Notes: generated from the letters alone by a model not told the origin. A DNA stretch of 20,228 bases from Thermoanaerobaculia bacterium (GCA_038245905.1 JBBRRY010000046.1:1-20228), one strand, 5' to 3'; shown: positions 7,370 to 18,134, counted from the first letter of the stretch. A program made the numbers and translations.

Positions 7370-8569
7370 TCAGATGACGCCGTTCTCCTTCAGGTTCGCG
7401 AGGTCGGTTCCGGAATATCCGAGCCGGTCGAGGATTTCGGCCGTGTGCTCGCCGAGCCGCGGCGGCGGGGTCTCGATCGCCGCCGGTGTCGAACCGAAGA
7501 GCGCGGGGAGGTTGAAGAGAGGAAGCGGCCCGATGCCCGGCGCGTCGACCGTCTTCAGCGTCCCGCGGTGGACGACCTGCGGCTGGTGGAGCGCCTCGTC
7601 GAGTCCGAGGATCTCGCCCGACGGGACGCCCGTGGCGTTCAAGAGCTCCACCCACTGCTTCGTCGTCTTCCCCACGAGCTTCGCCTCGAGGAGGGGCGTC
7701 AACGCCTTGCGGTTCTTCTTCCTCGAGTCGCGCTCCTGGAACCGCGGGTCGACCTTCAGCCCGGGAACGCCGAGGGCGTCGCAGACGGCCTCCCATTGCT
7801 CCTGCTTGTTCGCCGCGATGTTGACGTAGCCGTCCCGGGTCTTGAAGACGCCGCTCGGTGCGGCCGTGAAGTTGTCGTTCCCCATCAGGACGGGCTGCTG
7901 GCCGCCGATGAGGAGGTTCGCGGCGACCCAGCCCATCAGCGGCATGATCGCGTCGAGGAGCGCGACGTCGACCATCTGCCCCTCGCCGGTCCGCTCGCGG
8001 TGAAAGAGGGCCGTCATGATCGCGAACGCCCCCGTCAATCCGCCGACCGTGTCGCAGAGAGGGAAGCCGCAGCGGAGCGGGTTGAGCCGCTCGTCGCCGT
8101 TGAGGGCCATCGTCCCCGAGAGCCCCTGGATGATCTGGTCGTAGGCCGGCTTGTCGGCGTCGGGCCCGTCCTGGCCGAAGCCCGAGATCGCGCAGTAGAC
8201 GAGGCGCGGATTCACGGCCTTCATCGCGTCCCAACCGAAGCCGAGCCGCTTCATCACGCCGGGGCGGAAGTTCTCGACGACGACGTCGGTGTGGGCGACG
8301 AGCTTCCGGAAAATCTCCTGAGCCTCTGTTTTCTTGAGGTTCAGCGTGATCGACTTCTTGTTCGCGTTCTGAGCGAGGAAGCTCGTCCCCATCAGCTCCC
8401 TGTTCAGCTTCGGGACGTTGCCCAGCTTTCGTGCGAGGTCGCCATCGAGCGGGTTCTCGACCTTGATCACCTCGGCGCCGAGGAGCGAGAGGTGGAGCGT
8501 CGCGAACGGGCCGGAGAGCACGTTCGTCAGGTCGAGGACGCGGATCCCTTCGAGGGCTTTCTTCGTCAC
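7370..8569 (-). CDS. Family III CoA-transferase (CaiB/BaiF)
   Basis: LEGIRVLDLT.VLSGPF, LGAEVIKVE, NANKKSITLNLK, DVVVENFRPG, AISGFGQDGP and PPRLGEHT. GTG 8569 overlaps the upstream stop as GTGA. Confidence 0.93.
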   Translation of the reverse strand: MTKKALEGIRVLDLTNVLSGPFATLHLSLLGAEVIKVENPLDGDLARKLGNVPKLNRELMGTSFLAQNANKKSITLNLKKTEAQEIFRKLVAHTDVVVENFRPGVMKRLGFGWDAMKAVNPRLVYCAISGFGQDGPDADKPAYDQIIQGLSGTMALNGDERLNPLRCGFPLCDTVGGLTGAFAIMTALFHRERTGEGQMVDVALLDAIMPLMGWVAANLLIGGQQPVLMGNDNFTAAPSGVFKTRDGYVNIAANKQEQWEAVCDALGVPGLKVDPRFQERDSRKKNRKALTPLLEAKLVGKTTKQWVELLNATGVPSGEILGLDEALHQPQVVHRGTLKTVDAPGIGPLPLFNLPALFGSTPAAIETPPPRLGEHTAEILDRLGYSGTDLANLKENGVI

Positions 8570-9498
8570 GCGGGCACGTCCACGATCTTCCGCGACGCCG
8601 GGGCCGGCCCGATTCGGTAGACCCGTCCGGGCATCTCGCGCCCGAAGAAGGCCGAGACCGACCGTGCGACCTCGATCAGCGCGCCCAGATCGAGGTCGGT
8701 CCGGAGACCCGACCTCTGCCAGCCGTGGACGAGGTCCTCCGTCGCGACGTTCCCCGCGGCCACCTTCGTGAACGGACAGCCGCCGAGCCCGGCGAACGAC
8801 GACTCGAACGAGACGGCGCCGGAGCGCATCGCCGCCCACACATTTACCATCCCGAGTCCGAACGTGTCGTGGAAGTGGCAGGCGGGCTCGGCGCCGGGGT
8901 CCAGCTCGACGATGGCTCCGAACAGCCTCTCGACCTGCTCCGGATAGGCATGCCCCGCCGTGTCGGCGAGCGAGACTCGCATGAGGCCCGCGCCGAGGTA
9001 CTCCTTGACGATCGCAAGGACGCGCTCTTCGGGCACCGGCCCCTCGAAGCCGCATCCAAACGCGGACTGGACCGAGACCTGAACCGCCCGGCCCGCCTCG
9101 ACCGCCTTCTTCGCGGTCGCGAGGATGCGTCGCGTCGCATCCTCGGTCCCCATTCCGGAGTTTTTCCGGCTGTGGGTGTCGCTCGCCGATACGCCCATGC
9201 AGACGAGAGAGACGCCGCACGCGAGCGCGCGGTCGAGGCCCTTCTCGTTCAGGACGAGTCCGGAGAGGATGCCAAGCCCGGCGTCGGGCCTTTGCGAGAG
9301 CCTTCGGAACAGCTCGTCCGTGTCGGCCATCTGCGGGACCTTTTCCGGATGGACGAAGGAGCCAACCTGTACGACGTCGATGCCCGAGGCGAGGAGATTC
9401 CCGATCCACGCGAGCTTCGTCGCGGTCGGCACGATCTGCTTCTCGACCTGGAGGCCGTCGCGCGGCCCGACTTCGTGGAGGACGAGCTTCCTCATCAC
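8566..9498 (-). CDS. Hydroxymethylglutaryl-CoA lyase family (DRE-TIM metallolyase)
   Basis: EVGPRDGLQ, HFHDTFG (HxH metal site) and GLGGCPF...GNVATEDL. RBS GAGGAG upstream; start is GTG 9498 or ATG 9495. Confidence 0.92.
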   Translation of the reverse strand: MMRKLVLHEVGPRDGLQVEKQIVPTATKLAWIGNLLASGIDVVQVGSFVHPEKVPQMADTDELFRRLSQRPDAGLGILSGLVLNEKGLDRALACGVSLVCMGVSASDTHSRKNSGMGTEDATRRILATAKKAVEAGRAVQVSVQSAFGCGFEGPVPEERVLAIVKEYLGAGLMRVSLADTAGHAYPEQVERLFGAIVELDPGAEPACHFHDTFGLGMVNVWAAMRSGAVSFESSFAGLGGCPFTKVAAGNVATEDLVHGWQRSGLRTDLDLGALIEVARSVSAFFGREMPGRVYRIGPAPASRKIVDVPA

Positions 9499-9512
9499 CG
9501 ATGCTCCTCGCC

Positions 9513-11360
9513 CTACCGCCTGTTTCCCACCACGGTGCGGAGCACGCGCATCCGCGCGTCCAGCTCTTCCGGTGTCATGTTCGCGTACTTGGCGGGGAGG
9601 AAGCGCCGGTTGCTCGCCTCGAAGACGGCCAGGAGCTCCATGTACTCCAGCAGCTCGGAATCGCGGCTAGGGAAATAGTCCTCTGCCGCCTTCACGAAGT
9701 GCCCTGCGTCGACCTCCGCGTCTCCGCCGGAATCGCGCGCGGCGTCGTCGTTCGCCAGGAGGACGACGGCCTCGACGTCGGCGTTGCTGTAGCCCACGAG
9801 CTTTCGCGAGAACTTCTCGCGAAGAGCGGTGAAGTCCACGTTCGTCTTGACTTTGTTCTTCCGCACCTGGGCCCGGACGACGTTCTCGACCTCCTCGGGC
9901 GTCTGCGAGTAAAGAAACGGGATCTTCCGGTCCAGACGGCCAGCGCGCTTGAGGTCGATGTCGAGCTTGTCGGGGCGGTTCGTCATGACGAGAAAGAGGA
10001 TGCGGCCGCGATTGCTCGTGTCCGACATGAACTCCTTGATGCGCGCGATGACCCGGGAGCTGGTGCCGCCGTCGCCCTCGCCGTCGGTGTTCCCGAACGC
10101 GCGGTCGCCCTCGTCGATGATAACGACGACCTGCCCAATGGCCTTGATGACGTTGAGGATCTTCTCGAGATTTCCTTCCGTCGCGCCCACCCACTTGCTC
10201 CGAAAGTTCTTGAGCTTGATCGTGGTGAGGCCGCATTCCTTCGCGAAGGCCTCGGCCACGAACGTCTTGCCCGTGCCCATCGGGCCGGTGAAGAGAATGC
10301 CCATGGGTACGCGGCTCGTGCGCCCGTCGCGGATGTTCTCGGCGATGAGGATGAGGTCCTTCTTGACCTCGTCCATGCCGCCCACGACCTCGAATCCGTG
10401 GTCGGGCGAGAGGAACTCCACGAGACCGAAGCACTCGCGCTCCAGGATGTCGCGCTTCCGCTTCGCGATGAGGGCGTCGGCCTCCTTCTTCGCGCGATCG
10501 GCCGCGTTCCCTCCCGCCGCTACGATTTCGCCCGCGGCCGGAGCCAGGAGCTTCTTGATCTCCTCGCGCGACTGCCCGGCCGTGAGCGTCGCGAGCTTGT
10601 GCGCGCGCTCCTCGGCGTCGGGCCCGCCGCCCAGGATCTGAGCGATGAAGGCCTCACGATCGGCGCGCTCCTCTTCGGAAGGGGGCGGCGGGGCGAGGAT
10701 CGTCGCGATCTGCACGGCCTTGAGGCCAGCCGTGATCTCGGCGTAACGCTCCACGTCCTTGACGCCGAGGCGCGGGTCCGCGAGGCGAACCGCGTCGCGC
10801 CTCGTGTCGCGGTCGGGCATGGGGATCTCGACCACGGCCACCTTCGGGTTCGATACGAGCTTCGGCGCAAGGTCGGTGAGGTTCTCGGCCACCAGGATGA
10901 CGACGTTGTCGGACTTCTCGAGCTCGGGCAGGAAGGACCACCGGTGGAGCGTGACGATCGCGGCGCGGTCGGCGTCGGCCTGGAACGCGGGGTCGCCGGT
11001 GGGAACGAGCGCTTCGGCGTATTCCAGGACGACGGCTACCTTGTCCGCCGAGATGAGGAGCTTCTCGAGAGCGGGCAGGGCCTTTTCCTTCTGGGTGACG
11101 AAGAGGACGTCGTCCAGGACTTCGGAGCCCTTGCCGCGCTTCGGGCAGCGGACGCCCGTCGCCACGTTGTAGACGACGACGGTGTCCTTCGTCTCCCTGA
11201 GGAGGACGCCGGTCAGGAAGTCCGAGAGGCCGAGGAGCTTTCCGTCGCAAACGACGACGTCGAAGACGTTGCCATGCACGATGAAGATCGAAGCCTCGTT
11301 GCGAAGGTATCGGCGGCGCAGGTCCTCGGCCCAGCCGGGCAGGGGCTTCGGGTCGGGCAT
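9513..11360 (-). CDS. Classic-clade AAA+ ATPase with a degenerate N-terminal AAA-like domain and an intact C-terminal AAA domain
   Basis: Walker A GPMGTGKT, pore loop SKWVG, Walker B IIDEGD, sensor-1/[19 protein letters not shown]. The N-terminal half has FIVHGNVFD and VVLEYAEAL as decayed Walker-like strands. Confidence 0.92.
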
Positions 11361-11364
11361 GGGG

Positions 11365-12291
11365 TCACATCTCCCGTTCCATGGAGCCGAGGATGCGCTC
11401 CGTGTCGTGTGCCGTCTGGCGGATGGCTTCGACGCCGTCGAGGAGCTCGTCGAGCTGGCCGGAGAGCTCCTGCGGCGACTGCATGGTGACGATCTGGTCC
11501 GCGATGAGCTGGAAGGAATTCTCGATGAGGTCGAGCTGGCCGCGCGCCACGGTGAGGTACCGGTGAATCTCCTTCATCTTGTCGATCCGCTTCGTGACGA
11601 TGTCGAGGTTCTTCTTCGCGATCTGGGTCTGCTGCGGGTCGGTGTTCGAGCTCTTCACGATGGAGTCGTACTTCCGGCGGTCTCTGTCGAGGGCGCCGTC
11701 GTCGACCGACCCGAGATAGCTCTCGTACCGGGCGCACGTGACGGCCATCTCGACGAAGGCGTCCACGAGGCGGTCGGTCTTCACGAGCTCGTTTCGGAGG
11801 AGGTCTCCCGTGAAGGAGGGGTTCTGGGCCGCGAGGCGCCTGATCTCCTCCTGCCGCGCCACGAGCGCGTCGACGCGGCCTCCGTCGTCATCGCCAACGG
11901 TCTTCAGCCGTTCGGCGCGCTCCTGCGCCTGAAGAGCCTTCTTCAGCTTGTCGAAGCGCGGATCCCAGAGAAGATGCTTGAGCCGCTCGTTCTCGGGCCC
12001 GTGGAGGAGCCAGAGCCCCTCGAAGCCCAGCGCGACGACGGCGAGCACGGGATTCAACGTGAGGCCGGCCGCCGCGAGCGCTCCGAAAAACACGGAGAGG
12101 TTGTAGGGGTTCTTGAACGCCATCTGGAGATAGGGGCGCTTCTCGAACAGCGCACTCGTCGCGAGATTCCGTGCGGCGTCCGAGACGCCGCTCCGCACGT
12201 CGTTCGCCGTGGACGCAGCCGCCGTGGGCGCCGCGGCGGCTGCCTGGCGCGCCGCGGGCAGGGGCGTCTTCGGTTTCTCGAGGGTGCCCAT
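11365..12291 (-). CDS. Membrane-anchored alpha-helical/coiled-coil protein of unknown function
   Basis: Hydrophobic hairpin SVFFGALAAAGLTLNPVLAVVALGFEGLWLL followed by ~200 aa of charged helical sequence. Stop lies 4 nt from the AAA start. Confidence 0.85.
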   Translation of the reverse strand: MGTLEKPKTPLPAARQAAAAAPTAAASTANDVRSGVSDAARNLATSALFEKRPYLQMAFKNPYNLSVFFGALAAAGLTLNPVLAVVALGFEGLWLLHGPENERLKHLLWDPRFDKLKKALQAQERAERLKTVGDDDGGRVDALVARQEEIRRLAAQNPSFTGDLLRNELVKTDRLVDAFVEMAVTCARYESYLGSVDDGALDRDRRKYDSIVKSSNTDPQQTQIAKKNLDIVTKRIDKMKEIHRYLTVARGQLDLIENSFQLIADQIVTMQSPQELSGQLDELLDGVEAIRQTAHDTERILGSMEREM

Positions 12292-12322
12292 CAGCGCGGA
12301 TTATGAGCCGGGCGGCCCTTCC

Positions 12323-13240
12323 TCATCCCGAGTACAGGAGATCGAGCAGCTTCTTCTCGACGGCCCGGAACTCGGATGCCGACTTCAGCTCGATGTTGCG
12401 GACCGGGAAGTAAGGCACGTCGACACGGTGGAGCACGCGGGCCGGACGGGACGAAAGCACGTAAACGCTGTCGGCCAGGTAGACGGCCTCCGAAACGTCG
12501 TGCGTGACGAAAAGAATGGTCGGATCCTCGCTCCGCGACACGTCGAGGAGGAGGCCCTGCATTCCCCAGCGGGTCTGCGGGTCGAGCGCCCCGAACGGCT
12601 CGTCCATCAGGATGACCCGCGGCGCGTTGATCAGGGTGCGCGCGATGGCCACCCGTTGCTTCATGCCGCCCGAGAGGTCCTTGGGGTAGCGGTCGGCGAA
12701 ATCGGCGAGGCCCACGGACTCGATGTACTTCTTGGAGCGCTCGTGCCGCTCGGCGGCCGGGACGCCCTGGAGGTTCAAGCCGTACTCCACGTTCTCGCGC
12801 ACGGTGAGCCAGCCGAACGACGTGTAGGCCTGGAAGACCATCCCGCGTTCCTTGCTTACGCCGTCGACGGGCTTTCCGTCCAGGAGGATCTCGCCCTTCG
12901 TCGGCGCGAGGAGGCCGGCCACGGCCTTCAGGATCGTCGACTTTCCGCAACCGGACGGACCCAGGAAGACGACGACCTCGCCGGTGCCGGGCTTATCCTC
13001 GACGTCGAACGAGACGTCGCGAACAGCCTCGGTGCCGAGTCCCTTCCGATTCAGATACGTGATCGAGAGATTCTTCACGCGGAGCTTGACGGTCTCGGCC
13101 GTCGGCTCGTGCTTGTAGGAACCCTTGCGCTTCGCTCCGTCCGGGCCGAGGTCGACCGCGAAGGTGCCGGGCTCGCCCGTCTGCGGCGCTGCCTTCGGCG
13201 CCGTGTCCTTGTCGCGGACGGCGTCCTTCTCGCCGTTCAC
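12323..13240 (-). CDS. ABC transporter ATP-binding protein (TauB/SsuB/NrtD type)
   Basis: GPSGCGKS, LSGGMKQR, ILMDEPFGALD and VTHD. GTG 13240 overlaps the permease stop as GTGA. Confidence 0.93.
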   Translation of the reverse strand: MNGEKDAVRDKDTAPKAAPQTGEPGTFAVDLGPDGAKRKGSYKHEPTAETVKLRVKNLSITYLNRKGLGTEAVRDVSFDVEDKPGTGEVVVFLGPSGCGKSTILKAVAGLLAPTKGEILLDGKPVDGVSKERGMVFQAYTSFGWLTVRENVEYGLNLQGVPAAERHERSKKYIESVGLADFADRYPKDLSGGMKQRVAIARTLINAPRVILMDEPFGALDPQTRWGMQGLLLDVSRSEDPTILFVTHDVSEAVYLADSVYVLSSRPARVLHRVDVPYFPVRNIELKSASEFRAVEKKLLDLLYSG

Positions 13241-14034
13241 GACTGGGCCTCTCTCCAGCGGAAGAGGATGGCCGAGACGGTCCGGATGATGAAGTCGGTG
13301 AAAAGGCCGATGCCGCCGATGACGAGGAGGCCCGCGAACGACCACGACGCCTTCTGATGCGTGCGCGCGAGCTCGACCATGTACCCGAGCCCGTGCTCGG
13401 GATTCACGGCCTCGGCCAGGATGACGTACGTCCACGAGATCGCGTTCATCACGCGAAACGAGTCGAAGATCTCCGGAAGCGCTGCGGGCAGGAGAACCGT
13501 TCGGAGGACCTGGCCGCGGGAAGCGCCCAGCGTGAGCGCCGTCTGGACCAGCTCCTCGGGCACCGCGCGGATCGCCGTCACGACGACGGGCAGGAGGTAG
13601 ACGAAGACGCCGAGGAAGAGGAACGCGATCTTCTGCTTCTCGTAGATGCCGAACCACAGGATCAGGAGCGGGATGAACGCCGAGATGGGCATGTAGCGGA
13701 GAGGCGCCATGATCGGCTCGAACAGCCGGTTCACGGGCTCGAATGCGCCCATCAGGATGCCGAGCGGGAGGGCGATGGCCGAGGCGAGAAGGAACGCGGT
13801 CGCGATGCGGCGCGTGGACACGAGGATCGCGCTCGTCAGGTCGTACTGGAGGAAGAGCTGGAGCGTTCCGCGGATGACCTCGGTCGGCGAGGGCAGGAAG
13901 TCGGCCGGGGCGAACCCTCCGTAGCTGATGACGCACCACGCGCCCAGGACCGCCGCCGGCGCGACGAATCCGAGAGCCACGGCCATCGCCCGGGGCAGCG
14001 GGGCCCGCAGTGCGAAAAGATCGCTGCGCTTCAC
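13237..14034 (-). CDS. ABC transporter permease (TauC/SsuC type)
   Basis: FLPSPTEV, PLRYMPISAFIPLLILWFGI, EAA loop ELVQTALTLGAS, SWTYVILAE and GLGY. GTG 14034 overlaps the upstream stop. Confidence 0.92.
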   Translation of the reverse strand: MKRSDLFALRAPLPRAMAVALGFVAPAAVLGAWCVISYGGFAPADFLPSPTEVIRGTLQLFLQYDLTSAILVSTRRIATAFLLASAIALPLGILMGAFEPVNRLFEPIMAPLRYMPISAFIPLLILWFGIYEKQKIAFLFLGVFVYLLPVVVTAIRAVPEELVQTALTLGASRGQVLRTVLLPAALPEIFDSFRVMNAISWTYVILAEAVNPEHGLGYMVELARTHQKASWSFAGLLVIGGIGLFTDFIIRTVSAILFRWREAQS

Positions 14035-15680
14035 TCGGTCGCGAGGACGACCTTGATGTCGGTGCGGCGGTTGAGCTGCCTTCCCGTCTCGGTCGTGTTC
14101 GGGGCCACCGGATTCGTCGAGCCCTTGCCGATCGTCTGGAACCGGGCGGGAAGGATGTTGGGGAAATTCTTGAGCACGTATGTCTTCACGGCCAGCGCCC
14201 GCCGCTCGGAAAGCGTCATGTTCGCGCTGGAGCCGCCGGTGGCGTCCGTGTTGCCTTCGACGCGGAGGTAGGTGTTTCCGAAGGAAGTCATCGTCTCGCC
14301 GAGCGCATCGAGAACGAAGTACGAGCCCGCCATGATGACGTCGGACCCCGGCGTGAAGTGGATCTGGATCTGCTTGTTGATGATGGCGCGGTCGTTGGCC
14401 GAAGGGGCCTTCGACGCGATCCGGGGCTCCTCGACCTTCTGCTCCTGGTAATTCGCCGCGAGAGCAGAGAGGAAGCGCGTGTCGACCCAGTCCTTCGCGT
14501 CGACGGCCTTCGTGACGAGGCCCTTCTTGCGCCAGATCACGAACGCGGTGTCGAAGAGCGTCTCGTAGTGCGCCTTGCCGCCCGAGATCCCGTAGAACTG
14601 CGCGTTGTCGGCGTAGGGCGTGAGCTTGAGGCCCGCGAGCATTCCGGAGACGGTGTCGGTGTCCAGCTTCAGGGCCTTCGCGACGAGGGCGTAGGCCGCG
14701 TTCGGGTCGGCCTTGATCATGTCGATCCCGTCGAACCAGCCATGGATGAAGTCGCGGACGGTGTCGGGCGCCCGGTCGATGAGGTCCTGCCGCGCGCACA
14801 GCGTGTCGGCGATGATGTTCGTGGCCGCGGTCGTGGAGACGAGGACGTGCGCCTCGCTCTCGCGCGCGGTGACGGCCGCCGAGAGGTCCGGCTCCCAGGT
14901 GACGGCCGCGTCCACCTGCTTGGCCTTGAACATCGCGGCGGCGGCGGGCGCGTCCTGCGTGAAGATGATGTTCTTCTCCACCGCGGCGCGCTCGTCGGGC
15001 GTGAGGCCCGACTGCGACAACAGGAAAAGCAGCAGGAAATGCGAGGGCGTGAACTGCGTACAGGAGATCTTGTGGCCCTTGAGGTCTTCGACGGACTTGA
15101 TCGTCGAGAGCGACACGATGCCATCTCCGCCGCGGGACCAGTCCTGCATGATTACCGACTTGGCCTTCGCGTTCTGCTCGGCCAGGATCGAGGCCTCGCG
15201 CGCCCAGTTGTCGACGGTATTCCACATGATGTCGACGTCGCCTTTGCGAAACGCCGCGAGCTTGGCCGCCGGGTCTTCCAGGAGCACGAACTTCACGTTC
15301 AGGTTGTAGCGCTGCTTGTAGCGGCCCGAGGCCGCCGACTCCATGCCGCCGTTCGCCACGATGCCGGGCGCGTGGCCCGCCCACGTGTTGATAGCGACGA
15401 CCAGAGGCCGGTTGAGCTTGCCGCCGGCGGTGAGCGCCACACCGGAAACGCCGGCCGCGCCCTTCCCGCGCTCGGGGTCGGGCGGTGCGTTCTTGAGCGC
15501 GTCGAAGTCGGTGCCCGAGGCCGCGCCCGAGCCTTGGGCCGCGGCCGTGGTGCCAGGCGCGGGCTTGTCGGCGCCGGCCCATTTCTTGATGTCGATGCTC
15601 TTGTAGTGCCACAGCGCGTAGCCGATGACACCGAGGATGACGACGGTGATGAAGAACTTCGCGAACGCAGTGAGTTTCAT
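14031..15680 (-). CDS. Membrane-anchored NMT1/THI5-like solute-binding protein fused to a C-terminal OmpA-like peptidoglycan-binding domain
   Basis: N-terminal TM helix with no lipobox Cys, Ala/Gly/Pro linker, class II SBP motifs (DWSRGGDGIV, IKSVEDLKGHKI, VDAAVTWEP), and OmpA_C motifs (VEGNTDATG..N..LSERRA; G.G..NPVAPN.T..GRQLNRR). RBS GAGGAG. Confidence 0.9.
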   Translation of the reverse strand: MKLTAFAKFFITVVILGVIGYALWHYKSIDIKKWAGADKPAPGTTAAAQGSGAASGTDFDALKNAPPDPERGKGAAGVSGVALTAGGKLNRPLVVAINTWAGHAPGIVANGGMESAASGRYKQRYNLNVKFVLLEDPAAKLAAFRKGDVDIMWNTVDNWAREASILAEQNAKAKSVIMQDWSRGGDGIVSLSTIKSVEDLKGHKISCTQFTPSHFLLLFLLSQSGLTPDERAAVEKNIIFTQDAPAAAAMFKAKQVDAAVTWEPDLSAAVTARESEAHVLVSTTAATNIIADTLCARQDLIDRAPDTVRDFIHGWFDGIDMIKADPNAAYALVAKALKLDTDTVSGMLAGLKLTPYADNAQFYGISGGKAHYETLFDTAFVIWRKKGLVTKAVDAKDWVDTRFLSALAANYQEQKVEEPRIASKAPSANDRAIINKQIQIHFTPGSDVIMAGSYFVLDALGETMTSFGNTYLRVEGNTDATGGSSANMTLSERRALAVKTYVLKNFPNILPARFQTIGKGSTNPVAPNTTETGRQLNRRTDIKVVLATE

Positions 15681-15698
15681 TTTTGGGGATCTCCTCGG

Positions 15699-16406
15699 CT
15701 ACATCGTCTTCTGCGCGGCCTGCTGGGCGGCGCGTTTGGCCTTCATCTCGGCGAGCTGCTGTTTGGCCTGGACGTCTCCCGCCTGACTCTTCAAGGCGGC
15801 GAGACGCGTGTCGAGCGAAGATTCGGACAGCTCCTTGCCCAGGTTCGCGGCCGCGATCGTGTTCTTGATGTGCTCGCGCACGTTATCGAGCGCCTTGACC
15901 TCCGCGTCGACCGAGAGCCCGTCGAGCTGCTCCTGGATCTTGAGGCGCGCCTGTGCGCTCTGCATGCGGGCCAGCATCACGTCGCGCTCGCCCTTCAGCT
16001 TCTTGATCTCACCCTGCACGGAGATGAGAGACGTCTTGGCGCTGTCGGCGTCCTTGCTCGCGGTGTCCATGTCGGTCCGGAGCTCGGACACCTCGGTCCC
16101 AAGCTCGTTCTTCCGCTGGATGAGAACGACGGCGAGGTCGTCCTGGTTCGTCTCGACGGCGACGTTCAGCTCGGCCTCGGTCTGGGTGAGCTCCTTGCTG
16201 GCCTTCTTCAGCCGTTCGTCGATGTCTTCGCGGCGCCGGATGATGGCCGCCGTTGCCTGCTTGAGCTTGCTGTACTTTTCGATCATCGAGTTGATCGCGT
16301 TCTCGTAGGCGATCTCGGGGTGCTCCTTCTCGACGTCGGAGATCCAGATGGACAGGAACCCGCGCCAGAGATTGGCCAGCCTCGTGAAGATCCCGATGTC
16401 CGCCAT
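15699..16406 (-). CDS. PspA/IM30 (Vipp1) family protein, ESCRT-III superfamily
   Basis: N-terminal amphipathic helix [19 protein letters not shown] then E.PE, long coiled-coil hairpin, C-terminal LDTRLAALK, 235 aa. RBS GGAGG. Confidence 0.88.
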
Positions 16407-16439
16407 GTGTCCTCCCTCGTCCCTCGTCGAAATCCGGCG

Positions 16440-17081
16440 TCAGCGGGCGGGCGGGGCGGGCTCGACGAGCTTCGGCGACGCGCGCACGACGCGCGCCACC
16501 GTCTCCTGCCCGAAGAACTCCAGCACGTGCTGGATCTCGAGCTTCCTGTCGTTGCACGCCTTGACGACCGCTTGCTGTTCCGCCACGCGGTCTTCCATGA
16601 CCGCGTTGATGCGCTTGATCTCGTTCTCGAAGTCCCCGATGCGCTTCTGCGACTCTTCGAGGACCTTCTGGGTGTCGCCGGATCCAGCGCGAATGTAGCT
16701 CTCGAGCGCCTGGATCTCCTGGACGGCCCCCTCGATGATCTTGTCGATCGGAACGCCGAAGGCCTTGAGCGATGCCTCGACGATCTGCTTCTTAACGGCC
16801 GGCGGTGCGTCGGCGGGAAGCGCGGAGAGAAGGTCCGCCGCCTTGACGACGCGCTGCTGCTCCTCGGAGTCCATGCCCGCCGCCTCGTAAACGGCCCCGA
16901 AATCCACTTTCCCGCCCGGGGCGGCGGGGATGTCCTTCACGAAAGCGACGGGAGGCGGCTCGCTGGCGGCGGCCGCGATGGCGGCCGCGTCGTCGGACGG
17001 GGCGGCCGTGCCCGGCGCGGACTCGTCCGTGACGACGAACCACCCCAGGACGGTCGATCCCCAGTTCTTCTTGTCGGTCAT
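16440..17081 (-). CDS. Alpha-helical protein of unknown function, first gene of the PspA operon
   Basis: Short N-terminal WGSTVLGWFV segment, Pro/Ala linker, helical domain and C-terminal coiled coil. GC-rich third positions; 33 nt from pspA. Confidence 0.82.
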   Translation of the reverse strand: MTDKKNWGSTVLGWFVVTDESAPGTAAPSDDAAAIAAAASEPPPVAFVKDIPAAPGGKVDFGAVYEAAGMDSEEQQRVVKAADLLSALPADAPPAVKKQIVEASLKAFGVPIDKIIEGAVQEIQALESYIRAGSGDTQKVLEESQKRIGDFENEIKRINAVMEDRVAEQQAVVKACNDRKLEIQHVLEFFGQETVARVVRASPKLVEPAPPAR

Positions 17082-17099
17082 GGTTTGGCTCGGCCGGGG

Positions 17100-17160
17100 A
17101 TCTTATCAAGTGCGGCAGAAGAGGGCGTTCGGGAACGGCCGTGTCTCGCGGCGGTAGAAT
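17100..17160. promoter_or_regulatory. Divergent promoters: extended -10 for the PspA operon and a -10 for the plus-strand gene
   Basis: Minus strand TGaTAAGAT (17108-17100). Plus strand TAGAAT (17155-17160) followed by GGAGG and ATG 17178. Confidence 0.6.
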
Positions 17161-17177
17161 CGTCACGGAGGTTCGCC

Positions 17178-17603
17178 ATGCTCGCGTACCTGCTTCTCGC
17201 CCAGCTGGCCTCGGCAGCAGTGGCGACGCCGGCGGCGACGCCCGCGCCAGCCCTCGGCGCGGCTGCGACGGCCGTATCGGGGAGGCCGAAGACGCTTGCC
17301 GACCTCGCGCGGGAGCGCAAGCTCGGTTTAAAAGGCACCTCCGGCGGGACCCTGTCGGTGGCGGGAGCATCGGGGATGCCGGTCATCACGTCCGCAACGG
17401 ATGTCCGCGGGGGAAGCCCGGCTCTTCCAGAGGGGTATCTGCGCGTTCAAAAAGCGGAGACCGACGTTGCGGCCGCGCGTCGCGCCCTCGACGAGCAGGC
17501 CGTGAGGAAGGGCATGACGTCCGAGGATGCCGCCGCCGCCCGCCGGAAGCTCGACGATGCGCGCCGTGAGCTGAACAGGGAGCGCGAGGCGGCTTCCCGC
17601 TAG
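17178..17603 (+). CDS. Hypothetical exported protein with C-terminal coiled coil
   Basis: This is the real 3' part of the 14010..17603 ORF: RBS GGAGG, signal-like MLAYLLLAQLASA, TLADLARERK motif and charged helical tail. Confidence 0.75.
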   Translation: MLAYLLLAQLASAAVATPAATPAPALGAAATAVSGRPKTLADLARERKLGLKGTSGGTLSVAGASGMPVITSATDVRGGSPALPEGYLRVQKAETDVAAARRALDEQAVRKGMTSEDAAAARRKLDDARRELNREREAASR

Positions 17604-17604
17604 A

Positions 17605-17892
17605 TCACGCGCCTTCGACGAGGATCATCTCGGAACGCGCCGCTCTGAGCCGCAGCTCTTTTGGCCCGGCGTACTCGGGCGACGTCCACCACGCACGAGC
17701 GCGTTCTGCGTCCGGGAACTCAAGGATCACGAGGCGTGGCGGCCGCCACGTGCCCTCGAGCGTCTCGATCGCCCCGCCGCGGACGAGGAAGCGGCCCCCG
17801 TAGGCCGTGATCGAGGGCAGGACGGCCCCGCGATAGCGCTCGTAGCCTTCGGGATCGTGAACATCGACCTGGACGAGGATGTAGGCGGGCAT
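17605..17892 (-). CDS. DUF1330-family protein
   Basis: MPAYILVQVDVHD, YGGRFLVRGG..ETLEG.W, VILEFPD.E.ARAWW.SPEY. Confidence 0.9.
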   Translation of the reverse strand: MPAYILVQVDVHDPEGYERYRGAVLPSITAYGGRFLVRGGAIETLEGTWRPPRLVILEFPDAERARAWWTSPEYAGPKELRLRAARSEMILVEGA

Positions 17893-17918
17893 GAGGGCCT
17901 CCGGTGGCGAAAGACCCG

Positions 17919-18134
17919 TCAGCGCTTCAGCGCGAACGCGCCCTTGAAGATCACGAGGAGCCACGGCGCGCCGTGCATCGCAAAGTCGAGCCAGTCGATC
18001 GGCCGAACGAGCGTCCCGTTAAAGAGCATCTGGAGCTTCTCGACGACGTGCGGCGGGCGGAACGGCGCGAGGCCCAGCGTCAGCGCGGCGAGGATCGCGA
18101 GCGGCCAGGGGACCTGTTCGAGGAAGTGGCGCAT
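17919..18134 (-). CDS. Small conserved membrane protein (LGLAPF..PH..EKL family)
   Basis: Two hydrophobic segments with LGLAPFRPPHVVEKL.ML..G.L.RP.DW.D..MHG.P. ATG 18134 lies 8 nt after TAATCT. Confidence 0.75.
   Translation of the reverse strand: MRHFLEQVPWPLAILAALTLGLAPFRPPHVVEKLQMLFNGTLVRPIDWLDFAMHGAPWLLVIFKGAFALKR

Follow-up and report, generated by a model that had tools for sequence, protein, structure and literature searches.

How ESCRT-III-type polymers of bacteria (PspA, Vipp1) are disassembled is the question raised by a cluster of seven genes from a Thermoanaerobaculia bacterium (GCA_038245905.1, JBBRRY010000046.1:1-20228; hereafter the window, that is, the whole stretch of 20,228 nucleotides (nt) that was analysed), and it is a question that this cluster would allow one to test directly. 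Between positions 17081 and 9513 of the minus strand, the window encodes, in this order, a protein without a family assignment (g1), a PspA/IM30 protein, a substrate-binding protein (SBP) fused to an OmpA domain (SBP-OmpA), an ABC permease, an ABC ATPase, a second protein without a family assignment (g6) and a classic AAA ATPase. The composition and conservation of this locus are compatible with a self-contained envelope module built around the only PspA of the genome, in which the AAA ATPase would recycle or remodel the PspA polymer, a reading to which we assign a probability of roughly one half.

The seven co-oriented genes listed in a preliminary description of the window, made from the sequence, were all recovered with the same ends, spacings and overlaps. 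From g1 to the AAA gene, the intergenic spacings are 33, 18, -4, -4, 31 and 4 nt, and both 4-nt overlaps have the sequence GTGA, in which the stop codon of the SBP-OmpA gene meets the start codon of the permease gene and the stop codon of the permease gene meets the start codon of the ABC ATPase gene. The G+C content of the window is 65-70%, so that long spurious open reading frames (ORFs) are common; the seven named ORFs are present nonetheless. The identities proposed for the gene products were confirmed by Pfam and NCBIfam, which assign PspA_IM30, OmpA together with an NMT1/SsuA-like domain, BPD_transp_1, ABC_tran and AAA.

The neighbourhood as such is of a known kind, of which the window holds a well-preserved member, because an operon of PspA, an ATPase with two AAA domains, an ABC ATPase, a permease and a PBPB-OmpA protein is already described in the main-text passages of a comparative survey (Ravi et al., 2024, mSystems, PMC11237479). 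In these passages, the coverage of the neighbourhood amounts to one sentence with example accessions, and ATP-dependent remodelling is also proposed there. The novelty implied by the preliminary description is accordingly reduced: the neighbourhood and the remodelling idea had been published, and what stands is that the literature searched yielded no functional study, nor any experiments on a bacterial classic AAA ATPase linked to PspA. The neighbourhood goes unmentioned in the passages found in Popp et al. (2022). The gene g1, the constant partner g6, the tail motif of PspA, the rotations of gene order and the distribution in Acidobacteriota are absent from the main-text passages of the survey of Ravi et al. 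(2024), whose Text S2.2 and Table S3 may cover some of them. The tail motif is one novel element of the present analysis.

The conservation of the gene set was assessed in the best 80 of 335 relatives of the AAA ATPase, with one genome scanned per species. All but one of these loci (79 of 80) are labelled Acidobacteriota, including Pyrinomonadaceae, Thermoanaerobaculia, Vicinamibacterales, Holophagales and Blastocatellaceae, and the exception is a 2.7-kb contig labelled Anaerolineaceae. Synteny was determined by tblastn with the window proteins in the 54 loci that have at least 6.5 kb upstream of the AAA gene, and 43 of them contain all seven genes in the same order, an arrangement that is far beyond chance. 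The other 11 eligible loci represent subsets of the cluster: g1-PspA-g6-AAA (L013, L064), PspA-AAA (L011, L015, L024), g1-PspA-AAA (L073), g6-AAA with no PspA nearby (L021, L042), ABC ATPase-g6-AAA without PspA (L033), a cluster with a foreign inverted transporter in its middle (L053) and an AAA gene alone (L038). A g6-AAA pair with no PspA nearby is also present in L002, a short contig outside the 54 eligible loci. Over all 80 loci, g1 is found in 47 and g6 in 63.

The genes that flank the cluster vary among these loci. No family of flanking ORFs is present in more than 11 of the 80, and neither the HMGL-like gene nor the upstream DUF1330 gene of the window adjoins the AAA gene in any of them. 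With no conserved gene in the flanks, the boundaries originally drawn for the module are right, and the module occupies varying contexts. Its description as self-contained and co-conserved is likewise borne out by the neighbourhood search, both by the intact loci and by more divergent loci that contain the same genes.

The divergent set consists of 22 loci (8 + 14). PspA-g6-AAA triads are present in five of the first eight, at 32-36% identity for AAA and 22-26% for g6. Among the other 14, the SBP, permease and ABC ATPase genes accompany PspA and AAA in 11 (L092-L101, L103), where the identities are 21-33% for PspA and AAA and 25-52% for the transporter proteins, and the SBP match reaches into the OmpA domain in 10 of these 11 loci. 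A profile of g6 detects a g6-like ORF in 17 of the 22 divergent loci and in 13 of the 18 that lie outside the training set of the profile; in 12 of these 13 it is located directly upstream of AAA, and in L097 the two genes are about 3 kb apart. The g1 profile finds a match in three of the 22 (L101, L103, L104). The gene order is rotated in two loci, to permease-ABC-g6-AAA-g1-PspA-SBP in L101 (G280:C6), where all seven genes are kept, and to AAA-g1-PspA-SBP-permease-ABC, with six genes, in L103 (G270:C6). Two triads (L084, 5929..6933; L086, 4391..5407) contain an additional ORF of 334-338 amino acids (aa) between g6 and AAA that looks secreted by eye.

These loci bear on the possibility that the transporter is an unrelated nutrient importer that came to lie inside a PspA operon by chance. 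Such an origin would fit the triad and four-gene versions, from which the transporter is missing, as well as L021 and L053, which have a different, inverted ABC system in that place. However, the recurrence of the same SBP-OmpA, permease and ATPase with PspA and AAA in 11 of the 14 loci, at 25-52% identity, and the survival of this association through two rotations of gene order make a chance insertion quite improbable.

Still looser arrangements exist. In four genomes of one Acidobacteriota family (G281, G160, G101, G089), a PspA with the tail motif described below, g6 and AAA are all present and are encoded far apart or on separate contigs, which implies that the partnership, if real, does not require co-transcription. 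Judging from these sequence comparisons, the core of the module is an old, co-inherited set of PspA, g6 and AAA, which is often joined by the transporter and less often by g1. That the gene set has outlasted sequence divergence, rotation and dispersal speaks more strongly than any other evidence for its parts working together.

Of 301 Acidobacteriota genomes sampled, 8, including the present one, contain close orthologues of the ATPase, and among the three other genomes of the same genus only one does; the wider ATPase family, recognized with a profile of the N-terminal half, is represented in 45 genomes and PspA_IM30 in 88. By our tally, PspA is present in 39 of the 45 AAA-bearing genomes against 49 of the 256 others, and is encoded within 10 kb of AAA on the same contig in 28 of the 45; since related genomes are not independent, all these counts are descriptions and not tests. 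The linkage in 28 of 45 genomes suggests that PspA and AAA are partners. The same distribution could be thought to reflect a mobile stress or anti-phage island, spread horizontally, with the ATPase and PspA as defence effectors: several classes of Acidobacteriota have orthologues of about 70-79% identity, yet these are confined to 8 of 301 genomes and to one of three other same-genus genomes, and the flanks vary among loci. We give this explanation hardly any credence, given that PADLOC returns only generic domain matches (4.5e-11 for an IetA-type AAA, 2.3e-09 for the OmpA part of ZorB) and leaves g1, PspA, the permease and g6 unmatched, and that no integrase or mobility gene recurs in the flanks.

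The PspA protein (15699..16406, 235 aa) matches PF04012 with an E-value of 8.5e-20 and 71.7 bits (cut-off 33.9), residues 5-225 corresponding to positions 1-218 of the 220 of the profile. Its N-terminal amphipathic helix, an 18-mer that comprises residues 6-23 (16338..16391) and has a hydrophobic moment of 0.49, is conserved in the family alignment. At the opposite end, the protein terminates with QKTM (15702..15713), a tail that is nearly invariant across the close clade, and divergent AAA-linked PspAs contain a variable linker rich in Pro, Ala and Glu that is followed by EKTLGP, QKELGP, QKEMGP, PKDMGP or a similar sequence. The motif can be summarized as K-[TSED]-[LMI]-(GP or C-terminus), and the pattern used for scoring, sought in the final 30 residues, was [KR][TSED][LMI] with G[PS] or the C-terminus after it. 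It is present in 67 of 71 AAA-linked PspAs (PspA ORFs from 100 AAA-linked loci), three of the four negatives being near-matches (NAMGP, KTIGA, RTIGK), in four of eight unlinked PspAs from genomes that encode AAA elsewhere, and in none of 32 PspAs from genomes without the AAA family, a set that includes six close relatives of the triad PspAs (L136, L137, L139, L141-L143). The tail motif thus tracks the presence of AAA and, subject to the caveats given below, looks as a docking motif for the ATPase would, which makes it a candidate for this role. In ESCRT-III proteins, the MIM motifs that recruit Vps4 are found at the same C-terminal position.

A separate PspA subfamily (L029-, L045- and L278-type sequences; L130, L131, L133, L140) ends with K-[IE]-R/K-I-S-S (for example, ERISSSET and QKISSAFD) in place of the KT[LM]GP tail, and is found both where a genome has the AAA family and where it does not.

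The AAA ATPase (9513..11360, 615 aa) matches PF00004 over residues 355-482 (E-value 1.3e-26). Its active classic AAA domain, approximately residues 318-560 (9681..10409), contains the Walker A motif GPMGTGKT (10263..10286), the pore loop KWVG (10185..10196) and a Walker B motif ending in DE (10110..10127). In a set of 22 close sequences and in one of 33 that reaches down to 34% identity, little or no variation is seen in the P-loop GPMGTGKT, the D-E of Walker B, K-W-V-G, the T-N-R-P sensor region or the arginines that belong to the second region of homology. This agrees with the initial description of the enzyme as a threading ATPase: Walker A and Walker B, the KWVG pore loop and the arginine fingers are classic features of that activity. 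The solved structures closest to the active domain are the D2 domains of Cdc48/p97 and VAT (3e-42), and no Vps4 chain is among the best 60 solved-structure matches. The NCBIfam scores are 87 bits for CDC48, 74.5 for PAN, 70.5 for FtsH and 57.2 for CdvC, all far below the respective cut-offs (650 for CdvC), and neither MIT nor Vps4_C is among the Pfam matches at E-values up to 0.01. The likeness to Vps4 suggested in the preliminary description is apt insofar as a classic AAA motor is encoded beside a gene of the ESCRT-III superfamily, but it is otherwise overstated: a protein that lacks MIT and Vps4_C and scores best with the D2 domain of Cdc48/p97 can be likened to Vps4 and is not Vps4.

The greater similarity of the active domain to Cdc48/p97 D2, PAN and FtsH than to CdvC (87, 74.5 and 70.5 against 57 bits) is also a point in favour of the main rival explanation, under which the ATPase extracts membrane proteins or unfolds them for quality control in the style of FtsH, Msp1 or Cdc48, tethered by g6 and dedicated to the removal of damaged membrane proteins, possibly including the transporter. 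PspA would then merely seal the membrane under stress, and its gene would be co-regulated with the others without the protein being a substrate. The g6-AAA pairs that have no PspA nearby (L002, L021, L042) and the 6 of 45 AAA-bearing genomes in which PspA was not found fit this explanation as well. Nevertheless, we consider it unlikely, because the tail motif of PspA tracks the presence of AAA, PspA-AAA pairs exist without g6 or the transporter (L011, L015, L024, L105), and PspA is found in 39 of the 45 AAA-bearing genomes compared with 49 of the 256 others.

The N-terminal half of the ATPase (residues 1 to about 235, 10656..11360) has no P-loop and is followed by a helical linker. Visual inspection finds the AAA motif order in it, with HGNVYD at the place of the P-loop, VVLEYAE at that of Walker B and ILVAENL at that of sensor 1. 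When profiles built from 43 diverse sequences were compared with hhalign, the N-half matched the active domain at an E-value of 7.9e-5 and a probability of 61%, over 180 columns and with the motifs in register, against probabilities of 0.2% for the reversed profile, 0.7% for the PspA profile and 0.2% for the g6 profile. With shallow alignments, the two halves remain unmatched; a comparison of the N-half with Pfam at E-values up to 10 gives chance-level matches only, and one with PDB chains gives nothing significant. Pfam detects no N-domain family of the Cdc48 type in the protein, at the start of which stands the putative degenerate AAA-like domain. On this evidence, the N-half is a probable, not proven, degenerate AAA-like domain. 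The family of this domain comprises 1242 representative clusters (E-values up to 0.001, in a search of 1.84 billion proteins), many of them 556-630 aa in length. The AAA proteins of a same-genus genome (G246:C10:6650..8302) and of a metagenome-assembled genome of Pyrinomonadaceae (L051) are shorter by about 45-60 linker residues; given that the reading frame is intact (572 aa in G246), the missing part of the linker is dispensable.

A degenerate N-terminal ring could serve as a binding platform, as would be expected if the ATPase and g6 formed an assembly chaperone or holdase that keeps PspA soluble or loads it, comparable to PspF-PspA and Hsp70-Vipp1, with no disassembly after use. This alternative shares the genetic evidence for recycling, and a passage of a 2024 structural paper (PMC11746142) leaves the disassembly of PspA to 'chaperones or PspF'. 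It differs from recycling in timing and not in chemistry, and the intact pore loop, Walker B motif and arginine fingers favour processive threading over passive holding; we regard a pure holdase as distinctly unlikely.

The g6 protein (11365..12291, 308 aa) has a variable N-terminus, after which a conserved Y-x3-A-x3-P-x-N lead-in precedes a hydrophobic stretch of 32 residues, 65-96 (12004..12099), with a central N-P. We read this stretch as a membrane hairpin that would leave both ends of the protein in the cytoplasm. The hairpin is followed by some 200 residues of predicted helix and coiled coil, and a C-terminal block (residues 249-297, 11401..11547), which contains QLDLIENSFQLIADQIVTMQSP, is highly conserved. 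In the g1 protein (16440..17081, 213 aa), a conserved W/F-rich motif at the N-terminus (residues 5-17, 17031..17069) is separated by a variable low-complexity linker from a conserved helical C-domain (approximately residues 57-208). The searches returned 2242 homologues for g6 and 2806 for g1, and among the 120 listed for each, the names go no further than 'hypothetical'. Neither protein has a Pfam or NCBIfam match above the cut-off.

Several candidate affiliations of the two proteins were considered. Comparison with PspA by profiles from shallow alignments gives probabilities of 0.1-0.9%, and diverse alignments give 6-24% for g6 and 14% for g1 against 1.3% for a reversed control, values that are not evidence of homology; g6 and g1 could accordingly not be tied to PspA. 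For g6, an identity as Snf7 was likewise unsupported, PF03357 having no match at g6 or g6-like genes in five genomes at E-values up to 10, and so was an identity as Rv2743c (PspM), for which the hidden Markov model (HMM) PF25587 finds nothing at g6 at E-values up to 10. The survey of Ravi et al. (2024) mentions 'Snf7 homologs with a TM segment' in its main-text passages, and g6 could not be shown to be one of these. In an Atlas feature search, the nearest neighbours of g6 are unnamed acidobacterial clusters, Rv2743c being a weak lead at 0.85, and those of g1 are unnamed clusters that are commonest in Myxococcota and Acidobacteriota. Pfam scans of all members of the alignments produced only sub-threshold coiled-coil noise (for the g6 family, YflT in 7 of 42). 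In the g1 family, the sub-threshold matches are to zf-CRD (24 of 44 members) and to Mod_r, the Vps37 ESCRT-I core (17 of 44, best E-value 0.0011), and these are probably coiled-coil noise as well.

From their places in the gene order, g6 may be predicted to act as a membrane adaptor of the ATPase and g1 as an accessory adaptor. The standing of g1 as a full member of the module, as first described, is overstated: it is accessory and not part of the core, with a profile match in only three of the 22 divergent loci.

The three remaining genes encode a binding protein, a BPD-type permease and an ABC ATPase that together make up an ABC importer set of the NitT/TauT type. In the SBP-OmpA protein (14031..15680, 549 aa), the Pfam matches are to OmpA (PF00691; 3.6e-15, 56.5 bits, cut-off 27.2), NMT1 (5.1e-10) and Phosphonate-bd (7.3e-08). 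A hydrophobic anchor (residues 1-25) and a linker are followed by an SsuA/NMT1-like binding domain (approximately residues 120-404) and an OmpA-like domain (residues 442-538). A conserved stretch of the form N-x-x-L-S-x-x-R-A-x-x-V is a signature of OmpA-like peptidoglycan-binding domains, and it is present in the OmpA domain of this protein as NMTLSERRALAVKTYV. The N-terminal anchor implies that the protein is fixed in the inner membrane at one end and has the peptidoglycan-binding domain at the other. The permease (13237..14034, 265 aa, GTG start) is of the TauC/SsuC-like (NitT/TauT) type and matches BPD_transp_1 (2.9e-20), with the TauC and SaoP models below their cut-offs; the TauB-like ABC ATPase (12323..13240, 305 aa, GTG start) matches ABC_tran (6.7e-34) and, below the cut-off, the taurine ABC ATPase model (1.1e-63), as SBP-OmpA does the SsuA_fam model (2.1e-26). 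Because the specific NCBIfam equivalogs (taurine, sulfonate, SaoAP, urea) are all under their cut-offs, the ligand was left unassigned. In L021 and L053, another ABC system (24-40% identity) has its genes on the opposite strand between PspA and g6.

Taken together, these features can be arranged into a mechanism. PspA would polymerise on the cytoplasmic face of the inner membrane by means of its N-terminal amphipathic helix, and g6, the gene of which lies 4 nt upstream of that of the ATPase, would tether the ATPase at the membrane. In the predicted ATPase hexamer, the degenerate N-terminal ring could serve as a scaffold or docking ring, whereas the active C-terminal ring would thread the substrate through its KWVG pore loops. 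The enzyme might grip PspA by the C-terminal K-[TSED]-[LMI]-(GP or C-terminus) tail, which stands at the far end of the variable linker, and unfold or extract the subunits, such that the polymer would be recycled or remodelled as ESCRT-III is by Vps4. The doubly tethered SBP and the importer most likely couple the module to the uptake or sensing of a periplasmic solute, and g1 may be an accessory adaptor or regulator. For the central step, the direct action of the ATPase on PspA, we put the odds at about one in two.

Several observations weigh against this interpretation. The linkage of the genes would fit equally well if the target of the ATPase were some other component of the module. In 17 of the 45 AAA-bearing genomes, PspA is not encoded within 10 kb of AAA (five of these cases are at contig ends), and in six it was not found at all. 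Four PspAs from AAA-bearing genomes have no tail motif; moreover, the scored pattern was defined post hoc on the linked set, with S added after the unlinked set had been viewed, and the motif counts overstate the independence of the observations, given that a single clade of close relatives supplies about 50 of the 67 positives. Neither a recognisable substrate-binding domain nor a MIT domain was found in the N-half of the ATPase, and profile and HMM comparisons tied no family of PspA partners to g6 or g1.

In its strongest form, which we advance only tentatively, the interpretation would make the module an independently evolved bacterial machine of the ESCRT-III/Vps4 type, in which a Cdc48-like ATPase with a dead first ring, held at the membrane by a hairpin protein and coupled to a transporter that spans from inner membrane to cell wall, would spend ATP to strip PspA polymers of their subunits by a K-T-[LM]-G-P tail with the function of a MIM motif. 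If true, this would contradict statements in reviews that bacteria have no Vps4-like disassembly ATPase: according to a 2025 review (PMC7619361), such an ATPase 'appears absent in bacteria', and passages of the survey of Makarova et al. (2024; PMC10936438) describe bacteria as lacking a Vps4-like partner for PspA. Should the ATPase act on PspA, ATP-driven recycling of ESCRT-III-type polymers would have arisen at least twice; should it spare PspA, the module would still point to a connection of membrane repair with solute transport and with a binding protein tethered to the cell wall. The assets of the module as an experimental system are a single PspA, an ATPase with mutable catalytic residues, a candidate docking motif of 4-5 residues and a candidate membrane adaptor.

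With respect to the genome, the 113 contigs of the assembly add up to 3.8 Mb, at a completeness of 96%. The PspA of the cluster is the sole match to PspA_IM30, and PspB (PF06667) and PspC (PF04024) have no match in the whole assembly, in searches for which the controls gave matches (E. coli to PspB and PspC, B. subtilis to PspC alone). With one PspA, and PspB and PspC not found, the module is the sole recognisable Psp system of the organism. The original statement that pspB, pspC and pspF are lacking thus holds assembly-wide for the first two; for PspF, it extends to the window proteins scanned against Pfam, among which there is no sigma-54 activator domain, the genome itself not having been searched for PspF.

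Upstream of the cluster, g1 shares a 96-nt intergenic region with a divergent plus-strand gene (17178..17603). This gene has GGAGG 7 nt 5' of its ATG and encodes a 141-aa protein without a Pfam family, in which, by eye, the N-terminus resembles a signal peptide and the C-terminus is helical and charged. The single extended -10 promoter proposed in the preliminary description is represented in this region by the motif TGATAAGAT (17100..17108, minus strand), which lies 18 nt 5' of the ATG of g1; seen only by eye in a divergent intergenic region, it is a motif match and not a demonstrated promoter, and a consensus scan of 8400..18000 reported no sigma-70-type sites, this one included. Downstream, an HMGL-like lyase gene (9498..8566) starts on the same strand 14 nt past the stop codon of AAA, and the site scan shows no terminator-like site between the two, so that in this genome the transcript may extend past the seven genes. 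It is followed by a family III CoA-transferase gene (approximately 8605..7370, minus strand) and, beyond that, by an FAD_binding_2 gene and a gene for a thiamine pyrophosphate enzyme. The HMGL-like and CoA-transferase genes were considered as eighth and ninth members of the module and rejected, in view of the absence of the HMGL-like gene next to AAA from all 80 related loci; the CoA-transferase gene was not itself used as a query, and the downstream families recur in at most 7 of the 80.

Compared with known systems, the module resembles ESCRT-III/Vps4 and CdvB/CdvC in that the gene for a polymer-forming protein of the ESCRT-III superfamily is adjacent to that of an AAA ATPase of the classic clade whose pore loop has the form K-aromatic-hydrophobic-G, and it resembles ESCRT-III also in that the polymer subunit has a short conserved motif in its flexible C-terminal end. 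Unlike Vps4 and CdvC, the ATPase of the module has neither MIT nor Vps4_C and probably contains an extra, degenerate AAA-like N-domain, and unlike both of these systems, the module includes a membrane-hairpin partner and an ABC importer. Among type II AAA proteins, the active domain has its best sequence relatives in Cdc48, p97 and VAT, the tandem of AAA-like domains of which the ATPase probably shares. However, the first domain of the module ATPase is devoid of the P-loop and of the catalytic glutamate position, an N-domain of the Cdc48 type was not detected, and the protein is shorter (615 aa, compared with roughly 800 aa).

Like the module, the canonical bacterial Psp and Lia systems PspFABC, LiaIH and ClgR-PspAMN encode a small membrane partner near a PspA/IM30 effector whose N-terminal helix is amphipathic. 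In contrast to PspFABC, PspB and PspC were not found in the genome, and the ATPase of the module is a classic AAA protein without a DNA-binding domain, whereas PspF belongs to the enhancer-binding proteins of the NtrC type (PMC11237479, main-text passages); in contrast to ClgR-PspAMN, g6 is not matched by the Rv2743c (PspM) model. Further parallels are provided by the archaeal ESCRT-like loci denoted Halo_adaptin and Meth_adaptin in passages of Makarova et al. (2024; PMC10936438). One of these has a MIT-less Vps4-like ATPase next to a PspA-like protein, and the other includes an ABC substrate-binding protein (ProX) within the ESCRT locus. These loci differ from the module in being archaeal and in encoding winged-helix and adaptin-like partners, which the module lacks.

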